Below are positions 18,395 through 64,000 of a stretch of 64,000 nt of DNA, in pieces. Source of the DNA: a virus. Taxonomy: Duplodnaviria; Caudoviricetes. The notes below the pieces were generated by a model. It was given only the letters and a program-made list of their open reading frames with translations, ran no database searches and was not told the origin of the DNA. The position numbers were made by a program, and so were the translations under genes. How positions within the stretch are numbered: the first letter of the stretch is position 1; each line of letters starts with the position of its first letter. The stretch is taken from the IMG/VR virus record IMGVR_UViG_3300013426_000018, positions 64,001 through 128,000 of that record; one strand, given 5' to 3'.

Positions 18395-21300
18395 AAGAGG
18401 TTTAAAACATGGAAGAACTAAGACCTTTTCTGTATGAGTATGCTCATGAAAGAATTGGGCGAATGCTCAATTCTAATCCAGAGTATAGAGATATGTCTGA
18501 CGAAAAGCTTTATCAGATCGCTTCTCTTCTGGAAGAAGAATTTAAATCTTATCCTTATGAAGGGGATTTGAAATATTCTCCTAAAATGCCCAAGCACGAA
18601 GCGGCAGTGTGGATTTTTGAATATGTCTATGCACGCAATATGGCTAAACGTGCTAAGGAGGGGTAATTCCCTCCTTTTTTGTTTTTTATAAAATTTTTTG
18701 ATATAATATTTATAGAAAAATTGGGAAGCTATGTTTTCCTAAAAGGAGTTGTGTAATTTATGAATAATCGGATTCCTATTTATATGATTACTAGCTATGA
18801 AGTTCATAATGGAGAAATTCACAGCCAAGTTAATTGGGGTTTTTATTATTGTTTTAAGAATGCTGAAAAAGCAATCAAAGATTGTCCTGAAGATTTTTTT
18901 GAGCATTGTCACAATTACATTGTTATTGAGGAGCTCTTTCCTGGGCTTGCTAATTGTGGTAGAGCAAAATTCTATAAATATAATAGTGAAATTAAAAATT
19001 ATAATAAAATTGTTCGGCCTGAATTTTTTAATAATAAATGTGGTTTCTTTTGCTAAGGAGATATAAATTATGCTAATTAATATCCGACAAGGAATATTCG
19101 AGTCTAATTCATTTCTATATATACATAGTTTAACTATTGGGATGGAAGAGATGACTTCAAGAGGTAGAAAAAATAGAAAGGTCTTTTACCAAAAACTCAA
19201 TAGCTCCTGCGAATGAAAGATATTTTATTATGGATAATGTAGATAATATGTTTAATTATTTAAAGGAAAGGGAAAAAATGTAATGAACGAATGGACTTTG
19301 AGCGAAGTATGCTATAAGAATGGCTTCCGGGATGGGCAGGAGTCAGATGTCTATATTGTAACAAATCCTTACGGAGTTATTTATAGCGCCAGTCATGATT
19401 TAGATTCAGTTATAACTGAGATTGAAGCACTGGATGATTTTAAGACAATTACTCTTTCTATTTACTCCGTAAAGCCTGATGCTTGGGATATGGCCAATTT
19501 TATAACTTCTTATGATTGGAATTTTAAAAACAAGAGATATGAAAAGGTTCCTTAAATTGAAAAATTAAAAAATTTATGCTATAATATTATTATAAAAATG
19601 AAGGGAGCAAATAATTATGGAATATCAGTTTAGAGAAGAGTTTGATGAAGCCAGAAAGTATTGTACAAATGTTTATGGAGTAAATTCTAACTTTGTTAAT
19701 AATGATGATGAAGATGATTGGTTTGCTTGCCCTGAATGTGATGAACCTCTTTTGGCCGAGGATTGGGACAAGATTGAGGATTGGGAGCCTACAACTCCTT
19801 GGTCAGTATGTCCTATTTGTAATTATTCTTGGTATTCTGAAACTTATGGTGATTATGAAGAGGAAGATGATGAGCCTTATGCTGACTAAGTATGATAAAA
19901 TGTGTGTGGATATGAATGAAGCCTTGAAGGGTGGCGATAAGCTTGCACATAAAACTATTTCAGGCATCATTACAAAAAATATTAATGGTTTAGTCACAAA
20001 TTCTAATGAGGTAAGTTGGTAAGCGAGGGATAATTCCTTCGCTTTTGCCTTTTATAAAAAATTATGTTATAATATATATAGAAAGAAATGATAAATATAG
20101 GGAAAAGAAATTGTCCTAATTGTGCCGCACCTTATGATATTCAGTTAAATAAATGTCCATATTGCGGCACTAGTTATTTTGATTTATCTAGCCTTGATTT
20201 AACTAATAAAGAACCTTTTTATTTAAAAATTAAAGCTTCCATTGAAGGCAAAGATTGTTATATAACTCAATTAGTTCGTCCTAATTGTGAAATGGAAATT
20301 CTAGTAGAACGTAATGATATATATGCCACTGGTGGATTAGGGAATGCTAAGTTGGTTGCCTTCCAAGCGGCCTCCTCTCTTAAAACAAAGTTGAGCTTTG
20401 AAGCAACAAAAATGGTAAAAGAAGATTTTATGATTGTGGAGATAGAAGAATGAAATTAAAGACTGAAATAGAATGGTTGCTTTATAAGTGGTTTGGGATT
20501 AAAAGAAAATATCCTTGCGGACGAAAAAAAGGCGAGAGCTATCTTTGTTGTTGCCAGCCATGGATTGCGGAAAGACATTATTTAACAGAAGATAGGAAAG
20601 AATGGCACTGTAAAGTGTGTAATAGATGTGTAATTATGTCAAATCATAAAATGTCTGAAAATTTTGATGAAGTTTTATTTTGAAAAAGTTGGGGGATTTT
20701 TAAAAAAGAAATGAAGGATGTTAAAATTGTGATAGGGGCGTATTATATATGGGTGTTGTAAAAGACTTGACTGGTTAGCAATTTGGAAGATTGGGCAAAA
20801 GTAGAAGGAGATAATCGGTTCTTCAAAGCTCTTGTGGTAACTCATTGTAATGAATTTCCTAAGGGAGTTATTGAAAGTAAGTATTATAGTGACAACCCTT
20901 ATCAACTTAAAGAAAAAAAGTAAATTTGTATTTTTATAAAAATTTTGGTATAATATAAAAAAGGTAGAAAAATTGGTTATGCCATTGGGCTATTGATTGG
21001 TCTGGCTATTAATCTAGCTATTGGAGCATGGGTTGTTATGCTAATGTGGAACTTTGTAATTCCAAGCGTTTTCGGTCTTACTGTCATTAATTTTAAGCAG
21101 GCTTTTGCTTTGGAGCTATTATGTAATTGTCTTTTTGGCGGATTTAGTTATAGTGGATGAAATAATTTTCATCCCCTAATAGAAAGGATTTGGTATACAT
21201 GAGCAAAAGAGGAAAAGTGGAATATAATGATTTTTATTGTTTGAATTGCGGTCAACCCATTATGTTACCTCGTCGAACTGGGCATCAGTATCTCTCTGGG

Positions 21301-21412
21301 CACCGCAAAGTAATTTATTGTCCTTTTTGTAAAGAAACTGTAAATCATGTTCAGTGTAAGACCTATTGGGATGTTGTTGAGTTTAAAGAGGCCTTTCAGA
21401 GAGGTGAGTTCA

Positions 21413-21904
21413 TTGAAGAAGCAAAAGAAAGTATTAATTATGTCCGGAGTAATGGGTAGTGGCAAAACTACTTATTGTCAAAAGTGGATTGCCAAGCATA
21501 AAAATTCAATTTGGATTTCTAGAGATGAAATTAGATATTCACTTCTTGCTCCTGATGAAGAATATTTTTCAAGAGAAAAAGAAGTTTTAAAGGAGTTCCA
21601 CAAGCAAGCTCAAGAAGCAATTGATAATGATCAAGTTGATACTGTTCTTTTGGATGCTTCTCATTTAAGTGATAAAGCAATTTGGAAAACTCTGAAATAT
21701 TTGAATATATCAAGAGAAGTAAAGATTGTAAATGTGCGGTTAAACACTCCTTTAAATGTTTGTTTAGAGAGAAATGCGAGCAGAAAAGGTCGTGCCCGAA
21801 TATCTGATAATGTAATTAAGAATGCTTATAGTATTTTTTTAAATAGCGAGAAGTTTGATTGTGTGCGGAAACGCATCAATGAAGTCTGGGAGGTGACTGT
21901 ATGA
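21413..21904 (+). CDS. Polynucleotide-kinase-like P-loop kinase
   Basis: GVMGSGKTT Walker A, ISRDEIR, LDASH, CLERNASR; adjacent to a phosphoesterase. Confidence 0.75.
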   Translation: MKKQKKVLIMSGVMGSGKTTYCQKWIAKHKNSIWISRDEIRYSLLAPDEEYFSREKEVLKEFHKQAQEAIDNDQVDTVLLDASHLSDKAIWKTLKYLNISREVKIVNVRLNTPLNVCLERNASRKGRARISDNVIKNAYSIFLNSEKFDCVRKRINEVWEVTV

Positions 21905-22462
21905 GCCAGAATATCTTTTTTACTTCTGACTCTCATTGACTTTGGTCATGATAGAGACTTTATCTATAAACCTCGTGGGTTTGACAATATTTATGAGCAT
22001 GATGAAGTCATTATCCAGAATTGGAATAGTATAATTCAGCCTGATGATATTGTTTATCATTTGGGTGACGTGATGTTGGGTGATGATGATCATGGTATTA
22101 AATGTCTTCAAAGACTCAATGGCCATATCCATTTAGTTCGAGGCAATCATTGTACTGATAATAGACTAATTTTGTATGCTAGCTGTTGGAATGTAGAATC
22201 TGTTGGAGATTGGGCTATTATGATTAAAGATGGTAAACAAAGCATTTATCTTAGCCATTTCCCTACTATTACTTCTAATTATGATATTGAAAAACCTTTA
22301 AAGGCAAGGATTCTCAATTTGTGCGGGCATACCCATGGTAAAGATCCTTTCATGGATTGGAATAAAGGCCTTATCTATCATGTTGAATTAGATGCTCATA
22401 ATAATAAGCCTGTAGCATTAGAAGACGTTATGAAAGATATTAGAAAGAGGTTGGAAGAATGA
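21901..22462 (+). pseudogene. Metallophosphoesterase with 4-nt insertion near start (real or assembly artefact)
   Basis: FFTSDSH-[TGAC]-FGHD then LGDV, RGNH, GHTH motifs. Confidence 0.6.
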
Positions 22463-22732
22463 TTAGTATTTGGCATTTATTTTGGATTGTTCCACTAAGT
22501 TGTAGCATTGGGATGTTTGTTACAGCTCTTGTAAGTGTTAATAATCGTCATGGGGAGAATGATTAAGTTCATTCTCCTTTTTATTTTGGGATTGTAGATG
22601 CTCTGGGCGTTAAGGATAGTCATTCCCGCAAATTAAAACAAAAAAGCGATTTAGAAATTTTCAATTGGGTAATTAAAGATAATTAATTTTCTTTAATTTT
22701 AGTAAATAAAAAAGAGAAAAAGGAGAGTTTAT

Positions 22733-23389
22733 ATGGCAGATGTAGAGTATTGTAAATTAAATTTCACCGCAAGTGATATCAATAAAAGACTCGAAGATGT
22801 TGAAAATTTAAATCAAAATGTTAAGGCTATTGGAGAATATAACAAAGATAGAAATCAAAGCACTGGATATATACAGGAGCTTTAGGGAGAAATAAAGACA
22901 GTTGATGATAAAATTAGTGGTTTAAATATTACTTATGTTACGAGAGCAGACTTTTAGAGAATCGAAAGTACTGTTAATAGTCAGGGAGAAGATATTAGGG
23001 ATAATCTGTAGGATATTAAAACTTTACAAGCAAAAACCCTTGGTGTTAATTAGCCTATTGGATAGTCATCTTTACAGGATTAGATTTATAACTTATAGTC
23101 CAATAAAGTAAATATCTCAGATTTTGAAAATTTAAAGGCTAATACTGATAACCAAATAGCAAGTATAAAAAATAAAAATTCTGAATAGGATAGCACATTA
23201 ACCGCAATAGGAAGAATTGAGGATAAAGAAAATGGACAAAAAGGTAGCGGAGAATTAAGAAAATTGTAGCAGATTATAGAAAGTTATGGAGCGATTACAA
23301 CGCTTTAGAACGACATTAACACTTTAAAATCTAGTTTAGAAGCTTTACAGCTTGAAGTAAAAAATCTTAGAGATACAATTGGAGTTTAA
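22733..23389 (+). CDS. Coiled-coil protein, TAG-rich (probably structural)
   Basis: AAGGAG RBS; open to TAA only with multiple TAG=Gln. Confidence 0.6.
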
Positions 23390-23408
23390 AGCTTGAAAAT
23401 ATAAAAAA

Positions 23409-23446
23409 AATAAACCGGATTAACTTAATTGCTAATCCGGTTTATT
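23409..23446. terminator. Bidirectional intrinsic terminator
   Basis: AAACCGGATTA...TAATCCGGTTT hairpin between convergent genes. Confidence 0.7.
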
Positions 23447-23464
23447 ATTATTATTATTATATTA

Positions 23465-24814
23465 CTATTGAATAAGTTTTCTTAATTCTGAAAGTTTGGT
23501 ATCTACTTCTGCTTTTGTATAAAAATTAGAAGTATCATAAGAAATTGCTAAAGCTTTAGTGTTATTTAGTAAAGCTAAGAAAGTAAAAGTGTCTCCACTT
23601 TTAGCCGTCCAATTAGTTAATGAAATACTAGTAGAACTTACAGTATAATTAGTATCTTTTATTAGTAATAATCCATTATAATATACTAGTATATCATAAT
23701 TACCAGTATTACAAGGAGTTTGTATTTTTGTAGGAATTGTAACAGAAGTAGCATTTGCCGTTAATGTAGTTGAATCTGAATAAAATACTGGATAAGTAGT
23801 TTCAGTCTCTTCCGCAAAGAATAATTGTCCATCAAAACCTTCTGTGGGGACAGTAGTTCCATAATTTCCAGAGTTTTCATCAAATCCTAATGGGCCAGTT
23901 AGTTTATGCTCTTCTCCTGCCGTTAGAGGGAGATATTCATCTAAGAATCCTTCACACGCAACAGGTTTGCCATCTTTAAAGTATACAGGATTCTTTGAAC
24001 TACCTGCATTTACAGACCCTAAAGTATCTACTTCAATGCCGGGTAAATGTCCATCAGTTCTAAAATGGTAATTAGCTCCATCATAATAAACTATATACAT
24101 GCCCTCAGGAAGAGTGCAGTTACTGCTTGAGCTAATGATTCCATTAATATAGATCGGCTTGGCTCCTTTAGAATTTATATTTAAAGTTAAAGCTCCTTTA
24201 TAACTATTCGCTAAAGTAATCATTGCTAAAAAATAGCGGTTAGAATCTAAATTATAATAAGAACAATAGCCAGTTTTCGCAGCAGTAGCTCCTGAAGTTC
24301 CAATTTGAACATTCATTGTATAATAGAAATTATTATACCAAAAATCTCTCACCCAATTTGCCCCATCATAAGTGAATGGGACAATCGCTCCAGCCTACCA
24401 ACCATTAGACGTTTGTGAGTTGTTCATACTTTCAGCAGTTGTTGAATCAGTAGCTCCTCTCATCGTTAGGGGAATCGCGTCCCCTCCATTTATTTTTAAA
24501 CTAAGAGGCTTAGTAGTTGTGCTATAGTAAGTATTCGCATAAGTAAATTTGATTAGAACACGAGCTCCTGTAATAAGTTTAAAATTATCGATAGTAACTT
24601 CTTTTATCTATAAGTTGCCTGCTGTAGAGCACTCCCCATAATTAGTGGCATTAGAGATATCTGCTCGAGCTGCATTTAAACATATGCGTTTTGTATCTGT
24701 ATCGATATAAAATTTTCCATCATCTGTGGTAAAGTAGCAATATCCTTCGGTTATATTAGGTCTATTTTTTGTCAAATTATCTTTTAGACCTTTTTCAATC
24801 TTAAAAAGTGCCAA
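23465..24814 (-). CDS. Tail fibre protein (code 15, 2 TAG)
   Basis: ORFs 24608..24814 and 23465..24352 join in frame through two TAGs; WQAGAIVPFTYDGANW and LNINSKGAKPI segments. Confidence 0.7.
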
Positions 24815-24940
24815 TCTTCAGCACCTTCCTTTCTTCTATTTTTTCATCTATTTTGAACTTCTAAGTAAGAAGTTGTCTAAAATTTGCCCTAATAAAAAAT
24901 TTATGATATAATAATTATGAAAAAGATAGGAGGAATAGAT

Positions 24941-25732
24941 ATGAAAGTATGTTTAAACTCTCATTGCTCTCCTAAGTATCTCGAAAAAGCTGATGAAATT
25001 AAAATTAGTTACAAAGATAGAAATAAAATTATCGATTATGTTGAAAAATATCCAAAAGCAGTAATTGTTTTATCTCTAAGAAGCACATCAGAAGATATCG
25101 AAATTACTTGGGAAGAAATTAAACGATATCAAACTCTTTGTAAAGGAAATTTTTTATTTGCAGTAGTTAATGCGAATCAAGTAAAAGAATGTTCCTTTCA
25201 ATTAATTAATTTTTATCTTGATAGGCCAATTAAAACTTTTGAAGAAGTTTATTGGCTAAAAGCTTTTAATAGTAAATATATCTTAGCAGATTCTCCTTTG
25301 TTTTATAGACTAGCAGACTTGAAAGATTTAGGAGGTATTTCATTACGTATTGCCCCAAATGTAGCATATTACGCAAATGACATTCCTCGTTCTAATGGTA
25401 TTTATGGTTCATGGGTCCGTCCAGAAGACATTGAATTATATAGCGATTATATTGATATCATTGAATTTGAAGATTGTGATGTGAGAAAAGAAGAGGCTCT
25501 ATATAGAGTATATACAGAAACAAAGAAATGGCCAATGGATTTGAATAAATTAATTACTAATTTGGATACACCAATTAATAATTTCTATATTCCTGATACT
25601 TTTGGCTTAATGAGACTTACTTGCGGGCAAACTTGTATGTCTGGCGGAGCATGCCATTGGTGCGATAGAGTTATTGCTTTAGCTAATCATAAAGATTTTC
25701 AAGAAAGGCTGAAAATGACTAATGATAATTAA
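24941..25732 (+). CDS. Hypothetical protein with C-terminal Cys cluster (possibly U32-like)
   Basis: RLTCGQTCMSGGACHWC; AGGAGG RBS. Confidence 0.35.
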   Translation: MKVCLNSHCSPKYLEKADEIKISYKDRNKIIDYVEKYPKAVIVLSLRSTSEDIEITWEEIKRYQTLCKGNFLFAVVNANQVKECSFQLINFYLDRPIKTFEEVYWLKAFNSKYILADSPLFYRLADLKDLGGISLRIAPNVAYYANDIPRSNGIYGSWVRPEDIELYSDYIDIIEFEDCDVRKEEALYRVYTETKKWPMDLNKLITNLDTPINNFYIPDTFGLMRLTCGQTCMSGGACHWCDRVIALANHKDFQERLKMTNDN

Positions 25733-26624
25733 TAACTTTAAGGTTCTTGAATATATTTGCGGTATAACAGAAAAAGAATTGTTTAAGTTCATAAAAAAAT
25801 ATCTTCAGAATTTTGATTTTAACGCATTCTCGGGAGGTCCAAATCACTACGTTGCTTGGGGAAGCAGTATTATGTTAGTGGCTCATCTTGATACAGTTTT
25901 CCCATCTGTTCCTGATCAGCTCTTCTATGATAAGGAAAAGGATACCATTCTTGCTTTAGGCAATGGGGCAGGTTTTGATGATCGAGCAGGGGTTTACGCA
26001 ATTATTAAAATTCTAGAAAGAGTAACAGCATTAAATTTGCCCCTGCCCACAGTTATGTTTACTCTTGGTGAAGAAGATTTCGGTGTTGGGGCACGAGAAG
26101 CTGCAGAAGAGTATTATAATTTAGATAAGAATATTAAATATATGATTGAGCTTGATAGACAAGGAAAAGATGATTGCGTTTTTTATCAGTGTAGTAATAA
26201 ACAGTTTGAAAAATATATTAATTCTTTTGGATTTAAAACTCAAGCTGGCTCTTACTCAGATATCTCTTTTCTAATGGATAGTTTAAATGTCTGTGGCGTT
26301 AATCTATCTATTGGGTATTATAATGAACATAGTGACTATGAATACTTGCGGCCTAGTTATCTTGAAGATACAATTAATAAAGTTATTGAAATGCTGATTG
26401 ATGAAAAAAATGTTGTAGCTTTTAATTATTTGTCTAAAGGAAATAAAGCAGGAGCTTGTGCCAAATGTAAAAAGAATAGTAGAGAATTAATTAACGTTCA
26501 AGATAAGAAGTATTGCATTAATTGTGTATTAAAATTTTGTGAATACTGTCCTAATTGCGGAAATTTAATTGATATAGATAGAGTCCGTATTTGCCCAATT
26601 TGTCGAGAGGAGATTGTTTTTTAA
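25722..26624 (+). CDS. M28/M20-type zinc peptidase with C-terminal zinc finger
   Basis: VAHLDTV, GFDDRAG, GEE, ELDR, YYNEH motifs. Confidence 0.8.
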   Translation: MIINNFKVLEYICGITEKELFKFIKKYLQNFDFNAFSGGPNHYVAWGSSIMLVAHLDTVFPSVPDQLFYDKEKDTILALGNGAGFDDRAGVYAIIKILERVTALNLPLPTVMFTLGEEDFGVGAREAAEEYYNLDKNIKYMIELDRQGKDDCVFYQCSNKQFEKYINSFGFKTQAGSYSDISFLMDSLNVCGVNLSIGYYNEHSDYEYLRPSYLEDTINKVIEMLIDEKNVVAFNYLSKGNKAGACAKCKKNSRELINVQDKKYCINCVLKFCEYCPNCGNLIDIDRVRICPICREEIVF

Positions 26625-27186
26625 TGGCTATTAGAGGAACAGAAGCTAAAAATTATGTCACAAAAAAGATTCAAGAAGCTTTTGGGCCATCTTTTTTAGG
26701 AATTGTAGATAAAAAGTTATACGTTAGTGTAAAAGAAAATGGCGAGAATCTACAAGTGGCTATTTCTTTAACTTGTCCAAAAGAGAACTTGGAGTTTGCG
26801 GTTAATGATGCTACACAAAATGGCGGAGCAGTTTCCTCGCAAAATGGCGGAGCTGGATCCGCGCACTTTACCGCAAAAGAAATTGAAACTATTGAAGAAC
26901 TTATGAAACGAGTGGGCCTTTGAGTTAAAACTTAAAAAATGAAAATTCTTATATTATACAGAAATTGATAATATAAAAAATTTTTGGTATAATATCTTTG
27001 TAAGATAATATGAAATTACGGATTTAATATCCTCTTTTATATAAAAAAGTGTAATGGAGGAGCTTGTTATAGGCAAGTTTTACACTTTTTCTTTTCTTAC
27101 TTTTGAAATAAATAGACTATTTCCTATGACGAGTCTTTTGTTCTCGTTAGATTTTTTTCTACGTCATAGTTTACATATTTTTATAT

Positions 27187-27278
27187 GACAGTTTGAGTGA
27201 GTCAGGTTTAAACTAGTTGATTGCTAATCAACCGTGCCAGAAATAGCACCGCTGGTTCAAATCCAGCAACTGTCGCCA
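27187..27278 (+). tRNA. tRNA-Ser(GCT)
   Basis: Cloverleaf, GTTGA-TTGCTAA-TCAAC, long variable arm, GCCA end. Confidence 0.9.
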
Positions 27279-27458
27279 TATAGAAATTCTTACATGATTT
27301 AATTCTGTTTTAGCGGGCTATATGCCTGCTATTTTTGTAATGTAAAAATAACACTATATAAAAAAAATAAAAAATATAAGGGGAGCGTTGCTCTTTTTTG
27401 TTTTTATAAAAATTTTATGGTATAATATTTATATAAAAAAGTAAGGAGAATTACTTAA

Positions 27459-28268
27459 ATGGCTTCAAATATTAAGAAAAATAATCAATATTATGGAAAA
27501 TATAGAGAGTGCTGTGTTGTAGCTTGTTTAAATGATTCTCCTGTTGAATATTTTGAAAAATATATTTTCTCACAAGAAGAAAAAGATGATCTTTATCAAG
27601 ATGGTAAAATTATTGCTGACTATTTAGGGGATCATAAGGCTACTTATAGTGGCAATCACACTGCTACTGCGGCAGGAGATATCATTCTAGATAATGGTGA
27701 AACTATTGAATTAAAGTGCATTAGTGCGGGAACAGGGACATATTTTAATACAAGCATTTATTATTTTCAAAAATTTGGATTTAATTTTAAAGATTATATG
27801 GAAAAGTATGGTTTTTACCAGCTTTTGGAAAATAACTTTGGAAAGATCTTTAAAATTAATAGAAAAAATAATTCTCCTATATCACAGCCCAATTCTTCTG
27901 CTATTCGACATAATTACATTGATATTTATAATGAAATTATTGTTCCCGCAGATAAACGAATAAGAGAGTATTTCGTTAAAGACTTAGTAAAATACTTTAT
28001 GGCTCATACTGATAAAATGTATGAATTTATTAATGATATGTTAAATAAAAAAACTGATACTTGTGATAAAGGATCACCAGATAGATTAATTATTTATAAT
28101 TATTCTAAAAAGAAAATTAAAGAAATTAATCTAAGAGATTTTTTTAAAGATGGAGAGATTATTATAACAGATAAAGGATTCAAAATTGGTAATGTCCGTT
28201 TTGCTATTGGTTGGCAAAATGGTAATGGACTTAATAATCCTACTATTCGAGTATTTTTGGAGGACTAA
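27459..28268 (+). CDS. Putative restriction endonuclease (PD-(D/E)xK)
   Basis: AGDIILDNGETIELKC motif; directly upstream of a methyltransferase. Confidence 0.55.
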   Translation: MASNIKKNNQYYGKYRECCVVACLNDSPVEYFEKYIFSQEEKDDLYQDGKIIADYLGDHKATYSGNHTATAAGDIILDNGETIELKCISAGTGTYFNTSIYYFQKFGFNFKDYMEKYGFYQLLENNFGKIFKINRKNNSPISQPNSSAIRHNYIDIYNEIIVPADKRIREYFVKDLVKYFMAHTDKMYEFINDMLNKKTDTCDKGSPDRLIIYNYSKKKIKEINLRDFFKDGEIIITDKGFKIGNVRFAIGWQNGNGLNNPTIRVFLED

Positions 28269-29132
28269 ATGGGACTAGATAAATTTTATACTTAGAAAGA
28301 AGTAGCTAAACAGTGTATTAATTTCTTAAAAGAAAAAGTTAATCTTACAAAAAAAGCTTCCTTTTTAGAGCCAAGTGCTGGAAATGGTGCTTTTTTAGAT
28401 TATCTTGATAATTATTTGGCTATCGATATTAAACCAGAAGATGACAGAATAAAAGAACAAGATTTTTTTGATTTTTCTTCTGACAAAAAAGATTATATAA
28501 CAATAGGTAATCCTCCTTTTGGAAAACGTTCTAAGATGGCTATTGATTTCTTTAATAAAGCCAGTCAATTTTCTGAAATAATTGCTTTTATCGTCCCTGT
28601 TTCTTTTATGAAATGGAGTGTTCAAAAAGTCCTTGATAAAAATTTTGCTTTAATTGATTATTTTTATTTAAATCCATGTTCTTTTTTAGAGAATGGAAAA
28701 CCGTTTGAAGTAAGAACTGTTTTTCAAATTTGGGTAAAAAAAAGTGGTCAATTCTATAAAGGAAAAGATCTACAGTTAAAGAAATCTCCTCCAATTTCTC
28801 ACAAAGATTTTCTCATTTGGCAATATAATGCCACCCCAGAAGCCATAAAATATATAGATGAAGATTGGGAAATTGCCACTTATCGACAAGGATATCATGA
28901 TTATAACAATCTTTTTTATAGAAAAGATTATGATTATATAAAAGAGAAAATGACCGGGCAAAAAAAGCAACAATTCTTTTTTATAAAACCATTAACTGAT
29001 GCCGCAAGAGAGATCATTCTCAATATGGATTTTAATCTTCTTGCCGAAAGGAATACTTCTACTCCTGGCTTTGGTAAAGGCGATTTTGTTAGTTATTATG
29101 AAGAAATGTTTGAAAAAGCAAAAATTTTATGA
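28269..29132 (+). CDS. N6-adenine/N4-cytosine DNA methyltransferase (single TAG at codon 9)
   Basis: DKFYT(Q)KEVA, FLEPSAGNGAF, IGNPPFG motifs. Confidence 0.85.
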
Positions 29133-29420
29133 TATAATATTTATGTAAAAAGATAAGGAGATATGAAAATGCCTAACGGATTTACTAAATATTATAATAC
29201 GGCTCCAAAGCTCAATAGTAAAGCACAGCAGTCTAAAAAGGCCAATGAGAGAACTTATGAAAAAGTTGTTTGTGCTGGATGTGGTAAGTCTAATGTAACG
29301 CTTTATAAGACTGTTTTTGGCACTTATGAGTGTAAGGATTGTAAAAATTCTTGCGAACTTAGACGGGCTGATACAGAAGTTTGAAAAATTAAAAAATTTA
29401 TGTTATAATATATACATAAG

Positions 29421-29498
29421 TTAAGTGGGTAGTTTAAGGCAAAACATCTTCCTAGGTAAAGATATGCTTGGTTAGCGACCGGCGCAAGCCCCACTTGA
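29421..29498 (+). ncRNA. tRNA-like structured RNA (non-canonical)
   Basis: TTAAGTGGG/CCCACTTGA closing stem, D-like arm, ATCTT/AAGAT arm with 8-nt loop, enlarged T-like arm; first item after a promoter. Confidence 0.4.
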
Positions 29499-29503
29499 GA
29501 TAT

Positions 29504-29579
29504 CCGGGTGTAACTCAGTTGCTAGAGTGCGCGGTTTGGGTCCGCGATGCCGTGAGTTGAAGTCTCACCACTCGGACCA
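29504..29579 (+). tRNA. tRNA-Pro(TGG)
   Basis: CGCGG-TTTGGGT-CCGCG, CCA end. Confidence 0.9.
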
Positions 29580-29681
29580 GGTATTAAGGAGTTCTTTAGT
29601 GACTTTGTTATTAATTTGAAAAAATAAAAAATTTATGTTATAATATATTTACAAAAGCTAAGGGGCTGTGCTCCTTAAATA

Positions 29682-29756
29682 TAGCCGATTGGTGTAATAG
29701 TAGCACGAGAGCCTTTGAAGCTTAAGGAGAGGGAGCATAACCTTCATCGGCTGCCA
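29682..29756 (+). tRNA. tRNA-Gln(TTG)
   Basis: Anticodon loop CTTTGAA, CCA end. Confidence 0.8.
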
Positions 29757-29773
29757 TAAACATTTAAAAGCAC

Positions 29774-29860
29774 GCGGATATGACGTAATAGGTAGCCGTA
29801 GCAGCCTTAGAAGCTGCCGAGAGATATCTCGTGGGAGTCCGAGTCTCCCTATCCGCACCA
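29774..29860 (+). tRNA. tRNA-Leu(TAG)
   Basis: GCAGC-CTTAGAA-GCTGC, long variable arm, ACCA. Confidence 0.9.
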
Positions 29861-30064
29861 TAAAGATATCCAAAAGGAGAACTATTATGAATAATTTGGA
29901 AATTGAACTTTTGAAAAATCGTATTCATCTTCTTACTCAGCGTGATCCAGTAGGAAACGCAAAGATTATTAAGAAGTTGGAACGTAAGCTTCGGGCGTTT
30001 TGTGGTTGAAAATAAAAAAATTATGATATAATATATATAAATTGAAGGGCGAAGCCCTTCAAAA

Positions 30065-30139
30065 AAGGCACATACAGCAATAACTTTTTAAAGAAAAACA
30101 TTAATTTTGGGTATTAATAAGTTTAATTTAAGGTGCCTT
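30065..30139 (+). ncRNA. ACAGCAA stem RNA copy 1
   Basis: AAGGCAC/GTGCCTT stem, ACAGCAA, internal TTAAT-TTTGGGT-ATTAA anticodon-like arm. Confidence 0.7.
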
Positions 30140-30145
30140 GTATAT

Positions 30146-30220
30146 GCTGGTGTAGCTCAGAGACAGAGCAACACTCTTGTAAAGTGTAGGTCGAGATTTT
30201 GAAATTCTCCACCAGCTCCA
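30146..30220 (+). tRNA. tRNA-Thr(TGT)
   Basis: ACACT-CTTGTAA-AGTGT, CCA end. Confidence 0.85.
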
Positions 30221-30322
30221 TGAACCGACATGTTTTAAAACTGCTGCCTACATGGTCTATGCGAGGCTTAATTGAGAAGAGGACCGAGAGAACCTGGGCA
30301 TTGTTTGAAAAAGGCCCTATAT

Positions 30323-30397
30323 GCAGGTGTGATGTAATTGGCAACATTTCACTCTTCCAAAGTGACTTTGAGGAATCGTACTCCTTCACCTGCTCCA
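30323..30397 (+). tRNA. tRNA-Gly(TCC)
   Basis: TCACT-CTTCCAA-AGTGA, TCCA end. Confidence 0.85.
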
Positions 30398-30400
30398 TAT

Positions 30401-30478
30401 GGCGCTATAGTTTACGTTTGGTTAGAACTTCGGGCCTTCAACCCGAGGAACCCAGTCCGACTCTGGGTAGCGTCACCA
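30401..30478 (+). tRNA. tRNA-Glu(TTC)
   Basis: TCGGG-CCTTCAA-CCCGA, CCA end. Confidence 0.8.
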
Positions 30479-30557
30479 AGGAAAAAATTTGAAAAAATAA
30501 AAAATTTATGTTATAATATATTTACAAAAGATAAGAAAAGGAAAAGGTGTTAAAAAT

Positions 30558-30914
30558 ATGGCTCGTTATAAGTTTTATGATTATAATGATAAAGATTCTG
30601 ACTCTCATGTAGTTGTATGCGTGAGTTCTTATGCAGGCAAACCTGTTAAGGGTCGTGCAAAGTGTTCTCCTATGGACGAATTTGATTTTAATAAAGGCAA
30701 GGAGTTGGCACAAGCTCGTTGTGACGCAGTAATTGCGGAAAAGCGTAAGAAGAGAGCTATGTCTAAGGTAATTGATGCTTATAATGCTTATACTGAAGCT
30801 TCTTTTTATCTAGAAGATATGGATCGGTATGCTAAGGATTCTGTAGTTGCTTGCCGAGAAGCGAAGGAGTATTTGGAGGAATTGGAAAAGAATATGTTAT
30901 CCGGGGAAATTTAA
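30558..30914 (+). CDS. Hypothetical phage protein
   Basis: 118 aa ORF after a promoter; KGRAKCSPMDEFDFNKGKELA. Confidence 0.6.
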   Translation: MARYKFYDYNDKDSDSHVVVCVSSYAGKPVKGRAKCSPMDEFDFNKGKELAQARCDAVIAEKRKKRAMSKVIDAYNAYTEASFYLEDMDRYAKDSVVACREAKEYLEELEKNMLSGEI

Positions 30915-30929
30915 TTTTTCCCTCTGAAT

Positions 30930-31020
30930 CGATGGGTGGCCGAGCGGCTTAAGGCGATAGTCCTGAAAACTATTGACCGTGATGAGCGGTCCGTCAGTTC
31001 AAATCTGACCCCATCGGCCA
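30930..31020 (+). tRNA. tRNA-Ser(TGA)
   Basis: ATAGT-CCTGAAA-ACTAT, long variable arm, GCCA. Confidence 0.85.
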
Positions 31021-31025
31021 TCTAA

Positions 31026-31094
31026 AAGGCTCACACAGCAATCTTTAATGCTTGCAAAGCGATAGACTGGTAATCTATTTTTATTATGAGCCTT
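31026..31094 (+). ncRNA. ACAGCAA stem RNA copy 2
   Basis: AAGGCTCA/TGAGCCTT stem; internal ATAGA-CTGGTAA-TCTAT arm. Confidence 0.7.
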
Positions 31095-31124
31095 AAGGGT
31101 GATATTCTCAGTATCACCCAGTAT

Positions 31125-31214
31125 GCTCCTGTAGCTCAATAGGTAGAGCCCTCCCCTTATAAGAGAGACGCCCTCACAAGGTATATGATGGATCATACCC
31201 ATCCAGGAGCACCA
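31125..31214 (+). tRNA. tRNA-Ile(TAT) with unusually long variable region
   Basis: CTCCC-CTTATAA-GAGAG, GCTCCTG/CAGGAGC acceptor, ACCA. Confidence 0.75.
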
Positions 31215-31217
31215 TAA

Positions 31218-31277
31218 AAGACGCCTGCAGCAATACTTTGATGAAAAATTTGCAGAATAAGTTTTTTGAAGTGTCTT
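31218..31277 (+). ncRNA. ACAGCAA stem RNA copy 3 (GCAGCAA variant)
   Basis: AAGACGC/GTGTCTT stem; internal TTGCAGA loop. Confidence 0.65.
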
Positions 31278-31283
31278 GCTTAT

Positions 31284-31361
31284 GAGTTTGTCGTATAACT
31301 AATATGTTCAGCTATATAGAGGTGCTGAAAGATATAAGTTTAAATCTTATTAAACTCACCA
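31284..31361 (+). ncRNA. Degenerate tRNA-like element with enlarged anticodon loop
   Basis: GAGTTT/AAACTC-ACCA acceptor, TTCAGC/GCTGAA arm with 11-nt loop, ATAAG/CTTAT T-arm. Confidence 0.55.
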
Positions 31362-31396
31362 AAAGTAATACTACAAAGAAAGTGAGGTAAAAGACA

Positions 31397-31675
31397 ATGG
31401 TAATTAAGCAGTTTTAGAATGGCAAATATTCTTATAATTATAAGAAATATATTGCCGATACAAATGAAGATGTTGCAAAGATTCCTGTTGATATTAATGG
31501 CTCAATGATTGGCTGTGAAGCTTATGTAGTTACTACTGGAAAGACTTACGTTCTTGGTAGTGGAAAGATTTGGTATGCTTCAACGGGTGAGAAAATCGAA
31601 TGTGGGTGTAAGGATGTGGTTTCTGAATCGACTATTTGGGAGCCTGTTAGTTCACCTGATGAAAAGAATCCTTGA
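31397..31675 (+). CDS. Small hypothetical protein (1 TAG)
   Basis: GAGGT RBS, open to TGA with TAG=Gln. Confidence 0.55.
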
Positions 31676-31736
31676 AAAAATAAAAAATTTTTGGTATAAT
31701 ATTTATACAAGTTAAGTGAACGAAGTTTACTTTAAA

Positions 31737-31858
31737 AAGGCACTTACAGCAATCTTTTAATATAAAAAAGTTATATGTTATGGGTTTGATTTCCATTAAT
31801 TCCAATTGGGATTATAGCTCAACTGGTAGAGCGATAATTATTTTAATTTATGTGCCTT
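31737..31858 (+). ncRNA. ACAGCAA stem RNA copy 4
   Basis: AAGGCAC/GTGCCTT stem enclosing a T-arm-like hairpin followed by a tRNA 5' segment (TAGCTCAACTGGTAGAGCG). Confidence 0.7.
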
Positions 31859-31887
31859 GCGGGCATCGAAAGGTGCTCATTAGATAT

Positions 31888-32183
31888 TGGGGAGTAGCGC
31901 AATTGGCAGAGCGAAGGTCTCTTGGATACTTCTGGACATCAAGTCGGGAAACTACTTGATGAATGTCGGCTAACTCGGTGAAACTCTTTTTTAAGACAAC
32001 GCCGAACTAAGTTTAAGTCTTATTAGATTTAATAAATGCGTAGAGAGCATATACCGACCCCTAAGTCAGTAATGATATGGTGAAGACGTGCTCCGGACTA
32101 CAACGATATTTGATATCGGCTATAGTGATATAGAGTAGTGTGAAAACCTTAGGTTGTGGGATCGTACCCCACCTCCCCCGCCA
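31888..32183 (+). tRNA. Intron-containing tRNA, most likely amber suppressor tRNA-Gln(CTA); exons 31888-31922 and 32143-32183
   Basis: Spliced arm AAGGT-CTCT|AAA-ACCTT; 1:72 mismatch, G2-C71, G3-C70, G73, short variable loop. Confidence 0.75.
31923..32142 (+). mobile_element. Group I intron in suppressor tRNA
   Basis: Exon ends in U, intron ends in G; P3 GTCGG/CCGAC, P7 GAGCAT/GTGCTC; core similar to intron 32394-32645. Confidence 0.8.
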
Positions 32184-32227
32184 TTGGGTGTCTATTATGA
32201 CACTTATGGCGTTCCGCAGGAACGCAA

Positions 32228-32333
32228 TAGACGTTAACAGCAATTTTATAATATTAAAAAGAAAAGTTTTTCATATTTTTTATACACTCCTTTTCAACTG
32301 TGCCTCTCGCAGGTAAATTCATTAAAGCGTCTA
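32228..32333 (+). ncRNA. ACAGCAA stem RNA copy 5
   Basis: TAGACGTT/AGCGTCTA stem with ACAGCAA. Confidence 0.65.
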
Positions 32334-32358
32334 GTGATTTAAAATTGTAATTTAATAT

Positions 32359-32687
32359 GGCCCATTATCCCAATCGGTAGAGGAAGAGGACTTTGATGTG
32401 TTTCTTACTTTAAAGTAAGCTACTTTTTTAGTAGAGAGTGCCTAAGAGGAAACTCTTAGAGTAGAAGCTGGCTAAAACGGCGAAGGCAAACACAAAACGC
32501 CGTGCTAAGTTTAAATCTTATTAGATTTAATAAATGTGTAGAGAGTATATACCAGCTACCTAAACCAGAAATGGCATGGTAAAGACGTATTCCGGACTAC
32601 AACTTATTTTTATTAACAAGGCCATGGTAACATGGAGTAGTGTCGAAAATCCTTACAGTGTGGATTCGAATTCCACATGGGCTACCA
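32359..32687 (+). tRNA. Intron-containing tRNA-Leu(TAA); exons 32359-32393 and 32646-32687
   Basis: Spliced arm GAGGA-CTT|AAAA-TCCTT; canonical TTCGAAT T loop; ACCA. Confidence 0.8.
32394..32645 (+). mobile_element. Group I intron in tRNA-Leu(TAA)
   Basis: U/G boundaries, P3 AGCTGG/CCAGCT, GAG guide pairing with CUU. Confidence 0.8.
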
Positions 32688-32716
32688 GGAATACCCCCTC
32701 GATATGAGGGGATATT

Positions 32717-32810
32717 CAAGACATATACAGCAACTCTTTAATGAATAACAAAAAATTCTGATAAAATTTTTTTAAGTGGGTTCAAATCCCGCAAACTTAA
32801 ATGTGTCTTG
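32717..32810 (+). ncRNA. ACAGCAA stem RNA copy 6
   Basis: CAAGACATA/TGTGTCTTG stem; internal AATT-CTGATAA-AATT arm and GTGGG-TTCAAAT-CCCGC T-arm. Confidence 0.75.
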
Positions 32811-32839
32811 TCTTAAATTTGTAGTTTTGTTACAAACAT

Positions 32840-32985
32840 GCGAATGTAGCTCAGCGGCAGAGCATCGCCCTTTATCTGGTTCGATTAATGAAAGTCACTA
32901 AACTTATTTTAGTTATGTTAGTTCAAGTCTAACACCAGATTCCATAAGGCGAGGGTCGAGGGATCAGCACCCTCCATTCGCACCA
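32840..32985 (+). tRNA. Outer tRNA (predicted Lys TTT) interrupted by a nested tRNA-like insert
   Basis: GCGAATG/CATTCGC-ACCA acceptor, D arm, TCGCC/GGCGA anticodon stem flanking a 71-nt insert. Confidence 0.7.
32874..32944 (+). ncRNA. Inner tRNA-like element nested in the anticodon loop
   Basis: ATCTGGT/ACCAGAT-T-CCA acceptor, GATT/AGTC D arm, GTTAG-TTCAAGT-CTAAC T arm. Confidence 0.75.
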
Positions 32986-33006
32986 GCTTCCTTTCATGGC
33001 AATCAA

Positions 33007-33086
33007 AAGACAGCTACAGCAAATTTTTTATGAAAAAGTTTTAATATAGAAGATATTTGGGGATTCCTTTCAATTTATACTGTCTT
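33007..33086 (+). ncRNA. ACAGCAA stem RNA copy 7
   Basis: AAGACAG/CTGTCTT stem with ACAGCAA. Confidence 0.65.
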
Positions 33087-33507
33087 GTTCTTGAAAAATA
33101 AAAAAATTTATGCTATAATATATATAGAAAAATTGAGAAATTATATTTCTCAAAAAGGTAAAGTAAATCTATATATATTATAGCATATTTTTTATTTTAG
33201 GAGTTGTTAAAAATGGTTTTTGGATTATTGTTTTTTCTCTGATTTTACCCTTTTTGTTTATTTTAAAACTATTTTTGATAAAATTAAATATAGAATCTTT
33301 AAGAAGATTACTTATTGGAAAGAGAAAAAGTATGAGCAGCAAAAAAAAAGCAATCCATTCTATCTGCTAAAACTGCTGAAATGATGCGAGTATGGTCTGA
33401 AGATATTGAATCTTATAAACTTGAAAGTATTAAAGAACTACAGTCTATAATTGATGAAAATAATAAAAAGATTAATGAGTATAAAAAACGTGTGGAGGAA
33501 TTAAAAA

Positions 33508-33750: not shown

Positions 33751-33805
33751 ATAAAAATATAAACCTACAGACTTGAAAAAGTCCAAGAGAAAAGGAGATA
33801 AAAAT

Positions 33806-35401
33806 ATGAACAATTTTATGAATGGTATGAAGCAGGCTACTAATTTTGGATATACCGCTAATGGCGGTCTTCAGCATAACCATCTTGCCGGTGCAGTATA
33901 TGAAATGTACGCTAAGTGCGGAGCTTATAGACAGCGTAGTGACGAAGATTGTATTTTTGCTTTCAAGCAGGCTTTTGATGAGGATGAGGAACTCGCCATG
34001 AAATGTCTGTTTTACCTTCGGGATGTATGTGAAGGGGCAGGGGAAAGACGCTTCTTTCGCGTATGCTATCATTGGTTGGCTACTAAGCATCCTGACGCAG
34101 CTCTCCGCAATCTAAAGTATATTCCTACCTATGGAAGATTCGATGATGTTTTTTCTGTCGTAGGCACTTCTCTAGAAGATAACGCTTTTGCCCTGATTAA
34201 GCATCAGTTGGCTATGGACGCAAAGGATGTTATGACTCCCAATGGGGCTATCTCTCTGTGCGCTAAGTGGGCTCCTAGTTGTAATACTAGCTCTCAGAAG
34301 ACTCGTGCGTTGGCTACTAAGCTGCGTAAGTATATGGGATTTAGCGAAAAACAGTATCGAAAGTTGCTAAGCACTTTGCGTAAGCGTATTAATGTTCTTG
34401 AGCGTCTTATGAGTGCTAATGAATGGGATAAGATCGATTTCTCAGCTATTCCTTCTCAGGCAGGTATTAAGTATCGCAAGGCATTTATCAGACACGATTT
34501 GGAACGTAAGAAGGCTGACCCCAAGGCAGTTACTTATGAAGAGTTCGTTAAGGACGATTCTACTAAAGTAAATGCTGGGGCAATGGCTCCTTACGAAGTT
34601 GTCCATAAGGCAGTTGATTATTTGCGTAAGAATTATACTTCTAAGTATGATTATAATACTAACACGCATACTTTTTATACTTCAAAGAGTATGGATGATA
34701 CTGAACGTCTTGCTATTAACAAGTATTGGGATAATTTGGCTGATTATTTCAAGGATGCTACTTTTAATGGCATTTGTGTTGTTGATACTTCTGGTTCTAT
34801 GACCTGTGGTCGTGGGGCTGCCACTCCTATTGATGTAGCTATCTCACTGGGTCTGTATTGTGCTGAACGCAATCATGGGCCTTTCGCTAATCACTATATC
34901 AGTTTTGCCTCTCGTCCTCAGATGATTGAGACTTCTGGCATTGATTTTGTTGATAAGGTTCTGCGTATTTACAAGACTAACCTTGTTGATAATACTAATC
35001 TTGAAGCTGTCTTTAATCTGATGCTACAAACTGCTATCGATAATAATTGTTCTCAGGACGAAATTCCTCAGACGGTTCTTGTTATTAGTGATATGCAAGT
35101 TGATTCAGCTGTAACTTTTGGTATGGGTTATGGCTGGGGTAGTTATGGTAATAAATCTGGTCAGATCCGCACTATGATGGAAAAGATGCGTGAACGATGG
35201 GCTGCTAGAGGATATCAGATGCCTAAAATCGTATATTGGAATGTTAATGCGAGCCAGGACACATTCCTTGACGATGGCCCTGATGTTACTTACGTTAGTG
35301 GAGCTTCCGCAACGGTCTTCAAGCAGGTTCTCACCGGGAAAAGTGGATATGATCTTATGATATCTACGCTGTCTAGTGACCGCTATAAGGATATCCATTA
35401 A
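33806..35401 (+). CDS. DUF2828-family protein with C-terminal vWA domain
   Basis: TANGG, FYLRD..G.GERR, YGRFDD, AKWAPS, VVDTSGSM (MIDAS), ISDMQ, IVYWNV motifs. Confidence 0.85.
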   Translation: MNNFMNGMKQATNFGYTANGGLQHNHLAGAVYEMYAKCGAYRQRSDEDCIFAFKQAFDEDEELAMKCLFYLRDVCEGAGERRFFRVCYHWLATKHPDAALRNLKYIPTYGRFDDVFSVVGTSLEDNAFALIKHQLAMDAKDVMTPNGAISLCAKWAPSCNTSSQKTRALATKLRKYMGFSEKQYRKLLSTLRKRINVLERLMSANEWDKIDFSAIPSQAGIKYRKAFIRHDLERKKADPKAVTYEEFVKDDSTKVNAGAMAPYEVVHKAVDYLRKNYTSKYDYNTNTHTFYTSKSMDDTERLAINKYWDNLADYFKDATFNGICVVDTSGSMTCGRGAATPIDVAISLGLYCAERNHGPFANHYISFASRPQMIETSGIDFVDKVLRIYKTNLVDNTNLEAVFNLMLQTAIDNNCSQDEIPQTVLVISDMQVDSAVTFGMGYGWGSYGNKSGQIRTMMEKMRERWAARGYQMPKIVYWNVNASQDTFLDDGPDVTYVSGASATVFKQVLTGKSGYDLMISTLSSDRYKDIH

Positions 35402-62433: not shown

Positions 62434-64000
62434 ATGGAATATGAATTAATAAATAAAACAGCAAAAGATTCTAATGTTTTAAATTAGATTTTATTAAATC
62501 GAGGATTTAAAACAGTTTCTGAAATTTAGCATTATCTAAATACAACTAATGATGATATTCTAGACCCTTTGCTTTTGGACAATATGCGGGAAGGGGCTTA
62601 GATGTTAATACGACATGTATCAAACAACGATAAGACACTACTCTGGTTCGACTGTGATTAACTGAAAATGGTCTCAGTCATAAAATAAAATCTTGTAAAT
62701 TGCGGGAAGTTCCTTAATGCTTTAATAACCAAACTAATGCAGAAATGTATTAGTGGCGAAGGTAATGACTAAGGTATGGTAAAATCATTAAAGTTGGATA
62801 ATCCGCAGCGAAATCTCAATAATTTGAGAAACGTTCAACGACTATAATCAGGAGGTATAATTATTAATGTATAGTCTAAACCCTTTATTTAGTTCAAGAA
62901 AAGCAAATGCTCCTTTTTCTTAGGAGCAGTTAGACCAAATTAAAAAATACTTAGAAGATGGTTTTTCTAAAAAAGATATACAAGAATTAACGGGAATTAG
63001 TGCTAAAGCATTAAATAGAAGAATTAAAGAAAACGATTGGTCTTCTTCTCGTAAAAGACATAGTGGATTAACTTAGAAAGAACTTACTGAAATTAAAGAA
63101 AAATATGAAAAAAAAGAAAAAACTCTAGAAGAGTTGTCTAAAGAGTACAATATTTCTTTAAGTAATTTAGCCGATCGAGTTAGTAATAATAAATGGAAGC
63201 GGACCAAGAAAAAAACTCAATATAATTGTAATGAAAATTATTTTGATAATATTAATGATGAGCATAAAGCTTATTGGCTAGGTTTTTTATTTGCCGATGG
63301 TTACATTCTTTCAAAAAGAGAACGAGGATTAAATGAAAGTCAAAGTTTTGGGTTTTCAATTAGCGTTCAAGATATTGAACTTTTTGAAAAATTTAAACAA
63401 GATTTAAGTAGTAATTATCCAGTTAATATTTATGATGTAAAATCAGGCTTTAAAACAGATAAAAGTTATGGAAGAATTCTTATTACTTCTCAACACATGG
63501 TAAATCGTCTTAAAGAATTAGGTATGACAGAAAACAAAACTTATACTATAAAGATACCTAATATCGCGTTAGAGCTAATACCTCATTTTATTAGAGGCTA
63601 TAGTGATGGAGATGGAAGTATCATTATTTCTCGTTTAAAGTCAGGAGAAATTAAATATGAATGGACTGTAACTTCTACTAAAGAAATGTGCCAATCAATT
63701 TTAAATTATATAGAAAAACCTGAACTAAAATTATCTCAACGATGGCCTGAAAGGAATGTAAATAATTGGACTTTAAGGATATCTGGGAATAAACAAGTCC
63801 CTTTAATTTTGTCCAAAATATACGATAATGCGACGATATTTCTTGAACGAAAATATAAAAAATATGCAGAAATGCAGGGTAAAGATGCTTGATGGTTACA
63901 CAAGCGGAGCCGCATTCCTTAACTATTTTCATTATTTATTCCCTACTTTCATAGAAAATAGTGTTAGCTATTAGACTAATGAAGGTAAAAAGCATGGGCT
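62434..64000 (+). CDS. RecJ-like DHH exonuclease, partial; exons 62434-62658 and 63888->64000
   Basis: DPLLLDNMREGA(Q); splicing restores DCD|LDGYTS; EGKKHG. Confidence 0.8.
62659..63887 (+). mobile_element. Group I intron with LAGLIDADG ORF (62867-63892)
   Basis: AATTGCGGGAA, AATCCGCAGC, TTCAACGACTATA/TATAGTCT; LGFLFADG, IRGYSDGDG. Confidence 0.85.

Follow-up and report, generated by a model that had tools for sequence, protein, structure and literature searches.

The only tRNA(CUA) gene found in a TAG-recoded gut-type phage is split within its anticodon by a probable group I intron

How does a phage decode its TAG codons when the only tRNA(CUA) gene that can be found in its genome is interrupted within the anticodon? 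The question is raised by a 296-nt locus at 31888 to 32183 on the plus strand of a 64,000-nt stretch of DNA (the window), taken from the IMG/VR record IMGVR_UViG_3300013426_000018. The genome is that of a gut-type phage with a low GC content and has 173,969 bp. An earlier reading of the window (the original prediction) had proposed that the locus encodes an amber suppressor tRNA-Gln(CUA) hidden by a group I intron, and that self-splicing acts as a timer for the translation of TAG-containing genes. From the analysis described here, the locus is very probably a Gln-type tRNA(CUA) gene that is split between positions 35 and 36 by an ORF-less group I intron of 220 nt, an optional mobile passenger.

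The phage reads TAG as glutamine. When TAG was translated as a sense codon, the coverage by long ORFs rose from about 0.5 up to 0.77. In-frame TAG was counted 507 times, in 74 of the 105 long ORFs, compared to 1073 CAA and CAG codons, and the richest single ORF has 73 TAGs in 2465 residues. Reading through TAG gave full-length multi-domain Pfam matches for the lysin (8 TAGs), PhoH (6 TAGs), DnaB and GIY-YIG homing endonucleases. Four of the six TAG columns in PhoH, including those in the DEAQN and TQVDL motifs, are occupied by glutamine in 56 of 56 homologs, one of which was confirmed as a table 11 translation. The alignment with PDB 3b85 agrees with glutamine at TAG in PhoH. The lysin and the large structural ORFs are rich in TAG, whereas the tRNA region, the gyrase and the ligase are free of it.

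The locus is composed of a 76-nt tRNA gene and a 220-nt insert, arranged as follows.

31888 to 31922, plus strand: 5' exon of tRNA(CUA), positions 1 to 35, ending AAGGT-CTCT (C32, U33, C34, U35)
31923 to 32142, plus strand: probable group I intron of 220 nt without an ORF, with the boundaries taken from an intronless allele and the fold from covariation; the omega-G is G32142
32143 to 32183, plus strand: 3' exon of tRNA(CUA), starting AAA-ACCTT (A36, A37, A38) and ending with an encoded CCA

Once the insert is removed, the exons form a cloverleaf with a 7-nt anticodon loop that bears CUA. In the acceptor stem (UGGGGAG/CUCCCCC), U1 and C72 are unpaired and followed by G2-C71 and G3-C70. The 3' exon contributes the 3' strand of the anticodon stem, a 5-nt variable loop, the T arm GUGGG-AUCGUAC-CCCAC, the 3' strand of the acceptor stem and G73. 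The coordinates, the exon ends, the terminal G and the guide GGA had all been predicted correctly to the base, and the predicted features of the tRNA body (unpaired 1:72, G2-C71, G3-C70, G73, short variable loop) were confirmed. The 5' exon is identical at 35 of 35 positions to that of an intron-bearing ortholog on a metagenome contig (L042) and to the intronless gene of a phage relative (L070). Since the identical 296-nt locus was present in 7 independent assemblies, with a coverage of up to 777x, an assembly artefact was ruled out.

The split gene was missed by default ARAGORN and by the Rfam tRNA model, and ARAGORN -i reported it as tRNA-Ser(tga) i(34,220), which bears out the expectation that scanners overlook such genes. 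A second CUA tRNA was not found in the whole 173,969-bp genome by ARAGORN or RF00005, so that the earlier statement that none is visible in the window holds genome-wide. Neither a Glu/Gln-tRNA synthetase nor a release factor was found to be encoded by the phage genome. Removal of the insert by a protein route was rejected, as neither RtcB nor an RNA ligase was found in the phage genome; the only RNA_ligase-like match was below the cut-off and lies inside the gene of the NAD-dependent DNA ligase.

The spliced tRNA was compared with the tRNA-Gln(UUG) genes of other phages, with which it shares 58 of 76 positions. The 5' strand of the acceptor stem and the whole unusual T arm are identical, and the differences are mostly in the anticodon arm. 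The identity set recognised by the E. coli GlnRS consists of a weak 1:72 pair, G2-C71, G3-C70, G10, U35 and G73. The tRNA-Gln-related body of the focal tRNA bears these elements; its 1:72 position is U-C, and that of the E. coli tRNA-Gln is U-A. The split gene therefore presumably encodes a Gln-type amber suppressor tRNA(CUA), for which glutamine is the predicted amino acid. The Gln-like body in the original prediction thus agrees with the identity to tRNA-Gln(UUG) and with the TAGs at invariant Gln positions of PhoH. In the phages with the closest tRNA-Gln(UUG) (L035-L039), inserts of 47-62 nt were seen in the anticodon loops of other tRNAs, which ARAGORN calls Arg(cct), Leu(caa) and Ser(aga).

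The fold of the insert was assigned from the sequence and from an alignment of family members.

31920 to 31936, plus strand: P1, exon U33-C34-U35 (31920-22) with the guide GGA (31934-36), the guide covarying with the exon
31937 to 31961, plus strand: P2 hairpin CAUCAAGU/ACUUGAUG with a GAAA-containing loop, from the sequence, the alignment and the L042 fold
31965 to 31969, plus strand: 5' strand of P3, GUCGG, pairing with CCGAC at 32054-32058
31975 to 32005, plus strand: P4 (31975-80 with 32000-05), 100% paired, around a very short P5 (31985-96)
32012 to 32032, plus strand: P6 hairpin, the place of large inserts and HNH ORFs in other family members
32045 to 32093, plus strand: P7 (GAGCA at 32045-49 with UGCUC at 32089-93), a pseudoknot across P3
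32097 to 32139, plus strand: P9 (ACUAC/GUAGU) around P9a (32104-18) and P9b (32120-33, GUGA loop), from covariation

At the 5' splice site, U35 forms a wobble pair with G31934, and the P1 hairpin is extended by the intron bases GGA/UUC (31924-26 / 31930-32). This P1 is contained in the RNAfold minimum-energy fold of L042; in that of the focal intron, the pairing in the P1 region is slightly shifted. P5 is read from the sequence only, and P10 is weak. P7 encloses the 3' strand of P3 (32054-58) and P8 (32065-76, GUAA loop). P9 is followed by G-U-G, of which the last G is the omega-G.

Covariation was analysed with an alignment of 15 members for the helices P3, P4, P7, P8, P9 and P9b, with P7 as a pseudoknot over P3. 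Among the 30 pairs tested, 98.2% of the cells were paired, compared to 90.0% in shuffles, and 13 pairs were changed on both sides, compared to 5.8 in shuffles (0 of 500 reached 13). When the partner was slid by 1-3 columns, at most 3 pairs were changed on both sides. P3 was 100% paired with compensatory changes in 4 of its 5 pairs, P8 had them in 3 of 4 pairs, and P7 showed a change from C-G to U-A. The insert has the core helices with the P3/P7 pseudoknot, a U at the 5' splice site in a U-G wobble with the P1 guide, and a terminal guanosine, and in 15 of 15 members a G precedes the 3' exon. In all the members scored, the guide G preceded the P2 loop by 11-13 nt. In the family, guide and exon read GAG(U)/(A)CUU, and in the focal gene and L042 they read GGA/UCU. 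These features argue for a true group I architecture of small size, which lacks P5abc and has a guide that appears to be retargeted to the focal anticodon loop.

A search of the focal insert with the Rfam group I model RF00028 gave no hit at E<=10. Neither this insert nor that of the neighbouring split tRNA gene was matched, although the same genome search found 13 other group I introns. We take the miss to mean that the model detects this small subtype poorly; the outcome of this search is nevertheless negative. Since RF00028 is silent, the group I membership rests on our own alignment and on the resemblance to IC3 introns. The covariance-model check that had been suggested with the original prediction gave no match to RF00028, and support for group I came from our own 15-member covariation. 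A weak match of RAGATH-32 over P2 (E = 0.21) was taken as chance. Of the 13 further introns, 7 are over the cut-off, and most lie upstream of the window, among the structural genes. Those within the window (60292-60507, 62646-62899 and 56293-56548) are not listed by cmscan at the gathering threshold.

Relatives of the insert were sought by patterns of its core. The exact 30-nt core pattern had no match in IMG/VR, and with looser patterns about 25 related inserts were detected in IMG/VR and 9 more in bacterial MAGs of gut Clostridia. Nearly all of them are in tRNA(UAA) genes, between U34 and A35 in the context CUU/...G/AAAA (slashes mark the splice sites), and several family members have an HNH endonuclease ORF in P6. 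The region was unmatched in the GenBank phage collection, and four large IMG/VR genomes that bear family introns gave no match to the locus by BLAST. In its 5' domain the focal intron is nearer to the L012/L013 subtype, and in its 3' domain nearer to the main subtype, which hints at a recombinant origin. In the Clostridia MAGs (L059-L067; Acutalibacteraceae, Ruminococcaceae and Ca. Limimonas), the family intron was observed in long-arm tRNA-Leu(UAA) genes followed by terminators. These genes look chromosomal, and ARAGORN -i misnames them as tRNA-Phe(gaa). The occurrence in these MAGs suggests gut Clostridia as the host range of the intron family.

A second split gene of this family is located about 180 nt downstream of the focal gene, and a promoter about 190 nt upstream.

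31672 to 31700, plus strand: host-type promoter (TTGAAA, 17 nt, TG-n-TATAAT), the nearest upstream of the split tRNA
32359 to 32687, plus strand: sister split gene, a tRNA(UAA) with a short variable arm and a 252-nt intron (32394-32645) at the 34/35 site CUU/...G/AAAA

The two introns are 78% identical over the core. The sister tRNA has the anticodon UAA and A73; among other phages, a similar class I tRNA(UAA) was seen with the intron in L020 and L023 and without it in L030 and L035, and at the sister position L070, L080 (another phage relative) and L042 have an ordinary intronless tRNA-Leu(UAA) with a long arm. Near-identical copies of the promoter gave 8 matches in the window, compared to 0 expected. 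These 8 promoters (TTGAAAAAATAAAAAATTTATGTTATAAT type, extended -10) occur from 19557 to 33119 and are clustered in and around the tRNA array.

Other elements of the array were also recorded. The tRNA-Lys(UUU) gene at 32840-32988 contains an insert of 71 nt (32874-32944) that is itself shaped like a tRNA, complete with acceptor stem and CCA, and is located between CUUU and UAA of the anticodon loop; the Lys tRNA of L080 is uninterrupted (CUUUUAA). No RtcB or RNA ligase that would rejoin the halves was found in the genome. Nearly every tRNA is followed by a module of a stem plus ACAGCAA (31759-31857, and near 30065, 31026, 31218, 32228, 32717 and 33007). One module gave a sub-threshold match to YrlA (Y RNA-like; 32.7 bits, E = 2e-4), and the same module was seen behind a tRNA of L005, an unrelated locus. 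A tRNA-like gene at 31284-31358 scored 39 bits, with 6 bp in the anticodon stem and 11 nt in the loop, and the tRNA-Ile(UAU) at 31125-31214 has an unusual variable arm of 17 nt. At the position of the 542-aa ORF (33773-35401), the gene of the relatives matches DUF2828/DUF7788.

The anticodon depends on the splice register. Taken by itself, the focal copy allows a 7-nt loop in two registers, CUCUAAA with U35 and G32142 and CUUGAAA with U33 and G32140, and P1 and P10 are compatible with both. The second would make the tRNA a Ser(UGA), as called by ARAGORN -i. In this register, (G30)U31-C32-U33 is another possible partner of the guide GGA(C), and P10, as read from the sequence, is slightly better. 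However, L070, a 176-kb relative with the same gene order and a PhoH that is 94% identical, has an uninterrupted tRNA with the anticodon CUA. It is identical to the joined focal exons at 76 of 76 positions in the CUA register and at 74 of 76 in the UGA register. L080 (PhoH 91%) likewise has an uninterrupted CUA tRNA, of which the loop CUCUAAA is unaltered and both the anticodon stem and the T stem show compensatory changes. At the level of the DNA, the insert has only one possible pair of boundaries, and these fall on a U/...G/ junction. Both contiguous genes were found by ARAGORN. In the intron-bearing ortholog of L042, the intron ends ...GUAGUAUG/AAAA, so the G needed for the UGA register is missing, and in all 15 members the omega-G is the third or fourth base after the P9 strand GUAGU and never the first. 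In addition, a long variable arm is missing from the tRNA, and the window has a true Ser(UGA) gene at 30930, as had been noted in the original prediction. ARAGORN also misreads the Leu(UAA) genes of the Clostridia as Phe(gaa). A pattern search of IMG/VR for the intronless allele returned only unrelated tRNA-Phe(GAA) genes with the same anticodon stem. We conclude that the register is CUA, because the intronless L070 gene equals the joined exons at 76 of 76 positions, which is decisive. The predicted split between 35 and 36 and the preference for CUA over Ser(UGA) are thereby upheld. At the level of the DNA comparison the Ser(UGA) register is refuted, and we regard it as extremely improbable.

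With the CUA register settled, it may be asked what the insertion does to the gene. It could have killed the suppressor, with TAG being decoded by a host factor or by an undetected tRNA. Splicing of the focal tRNA is a prediction from the sequence, RF00028 does not recognise the intron, and there is the odd tRNA-like element at 31284-31358, all of which would fit an inactivated gene. Yet between the focal locus and L042 the exons are identical at 76 of 76 positions and the introns at 86%, whereas the flanks, at 35-46%, are not alignable. Conservation extends to the intron core, which shows compensatory changes, and the guide fits the exon. The phage is abundant, has 507 in-frame TAGs and is fixed for this allele, and the searches gave no second CUA tRNA. 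An inactivated gene is therefore highly improbable. The original prediction itself had GTP/Mg-dependent self-splicing as a timer. In a fuller form of this reading, the intron would serve as timer or sensor, and its splicing rate, determined by GTP, Mg2+ and folding, would set when enough suppressor is at hand to translate the TAG-containing late and lysis genes. All TAG decoding in this genome does pass through splicing, the TAG-rich lysin and structural genes versus the TAG-free tRNA region, gyrase and ligase fit the early/late model of Borges et al., and theta ribozymes beside phage suppressor tRNAs were earlier proposed as a component of such a switch. Against this, the same recoding works in L070 and L080, where the intron is absent and the PhoH genes translate only with TAG as Q. 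The same intron family occurs in the neighbouring tRNA(UAA) gene and in ordinary Leu(UAA) tRNA genes of phages and Clostridia, the gene is behind a consensus host-type promoter, and the intron lacks an additional domain with which a signal might be sensed. No sign of regulated splicing was seen in the sequence. We consider a splicing-gated switch unlikely. There is an equally small chance that a passenger intron was later co-opted in this lineage for a ribozyme-set delay in the genetic-code switch; if so, the suppressor supply and the translation of the TAG-rich late and lysis genes would track the GTP/Mg2+ state or the folding kinetics. The PhoH relatives L082-L086, which are more distant, differ in their gene neighbourhood, and no tRNAs are present there within 10 kb.

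Since the identical tRNA is present uninterrupted in close recoded relatives, the intron appears to be an optional mobile passenger that is tolerated, and not a timing switch. The most economical explanation is that its source was a tRNA(UAA) gene, from which it reached a loop of similar context (GGACUU/AAAAUCC compared to GGUCUCU/AAAACCU), where it would be tolerated because it is predicted to splice itself. Of the two claims that had been made for the function, the dependence of TAG decoding on splicing stands with the sole suppressor, and the role of splicing as a timer or gate does not, given the intronless recoded relatives. The code change of this phage depends on splicing, as no other suppressor is available for TAG decoding, and nothing indicates a regulation by the intron.

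The following pathway is proposed for the passenger intron. The gene would be transcribed from the host-type promoter together with the neighbouring genes, and the intron would fold into P1-P9 with the P3/P7 pseudoknot. The guide GGA would pair with U33-C34-U35, and a free guanosine would attack after U35, opposite G31934. The terminal G32142 would then dock, and ligation of the exons would generate the loop CUCUAAA. The mature tRNA would be charged, presumably with glutamine, and would read the about 500 in-frame TAGs. Since the phage has no Glu/Gln-tRNA synthetase, we infer that the charging enzyme is that of the host.

Group I introns in the anticodon loop of tRNAs are classical in cyanobacteria, plastids and some proteobacteria. 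From the insertion context and the missing P5abc, we take the focal family to resemble the cyanobacterial and plastid IC3 intron of tRNA-Leu(UAA) and the related Azoarcus intron of tRNA-Ile(CAU). The site CUU/...G/AAAA between U34 and A35 is the classical site of the cyanobacterial and plastid tRNA-Leu intron. Like the IC3 introns of tRNA-Leu, the focal intron is small, ORF-less and located in a tRNA anticodon loop, with a 3-bp P1 formed by loop bases and a U-G wobble, a guide directly before a P2 with a GAAA loop, a P3/P7 pseudoknot, no P5abc and a terminal G. Unlike them, it resides in a Gln-type tRNA(CUA) gene of a phage, one base further 3' (35/36), with the guide changed from GAG to GGA and P5 nearly absent, and it is not scored by RF00028. 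An intron of the tRNA-Leu(UAA) family can thus probably move to a different tRNA once its 3-nt guide is retargeted.

According to Hausner et al. 2014, every group I intron then known from phages was in a protein gene, despite the many tRNA genes of phages. The focal intron resembles those of T4 td/nrdB, Twort and SPO1 as a mobile group I intron in a phage rich in homing endonucleases, but it interrupts a tRNA gene, as do about 25 relatives from IMG/VR. Group I introns therefore do appear to colonise phage tRNA genes, which was unobserved in the 2014 review. Theta (HDV-like) ribozymes have been described beside phage tRNAs, one fifth of them suppressors, and were discussed in the context of a code switch (Kienbeck et al. 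2024). Both are self-processing RNAs needed for the maturation of a phage suppressor tRNA, with splicing being predicted in our case. Theta ribozymes cut the 3' trailer outside of the tRNA, whereas the focal splicing ribozyme is inside the anticodon, and the ligation would create the anticodon. Literature searches found no published description of an intron-split phage suppressor tRNA; the subject of PMC11915505 is tmRNA, with nothing on introns in tRNA anticodon loops.

Among TAG-recoded phages, just 40% had a TAG suppressor in the study of Borges et al., who suspected non-canonical tRNAs. As in their code 15 phages, a single Gln-type CUA tRNA is present here in a low-GC phage without its own synthetase or release factor, and the structural and lysis genes are rich and the early genes poor in TAG. 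Unlike the suppressors described there, the focal gene is split by a ribozyme and is therefore not reported by tRNA finders. The tRNAscan-SE 2.0 paper states that the program was not designed for detecting group I introns, and an intron-aware finder assigns the wrong anticodon to the split suppressor. Pairs of phages with and without the intron exist in nature and offer a direct way to test splicing against the timing of late genes. The locus provides one resolved reason for missing suppressors, where the tRNA is present and its anticodon is split by a probable ribozyme, and pipelines that infer the genetic codes and tRNA sets of phages should look for split tRNAs.
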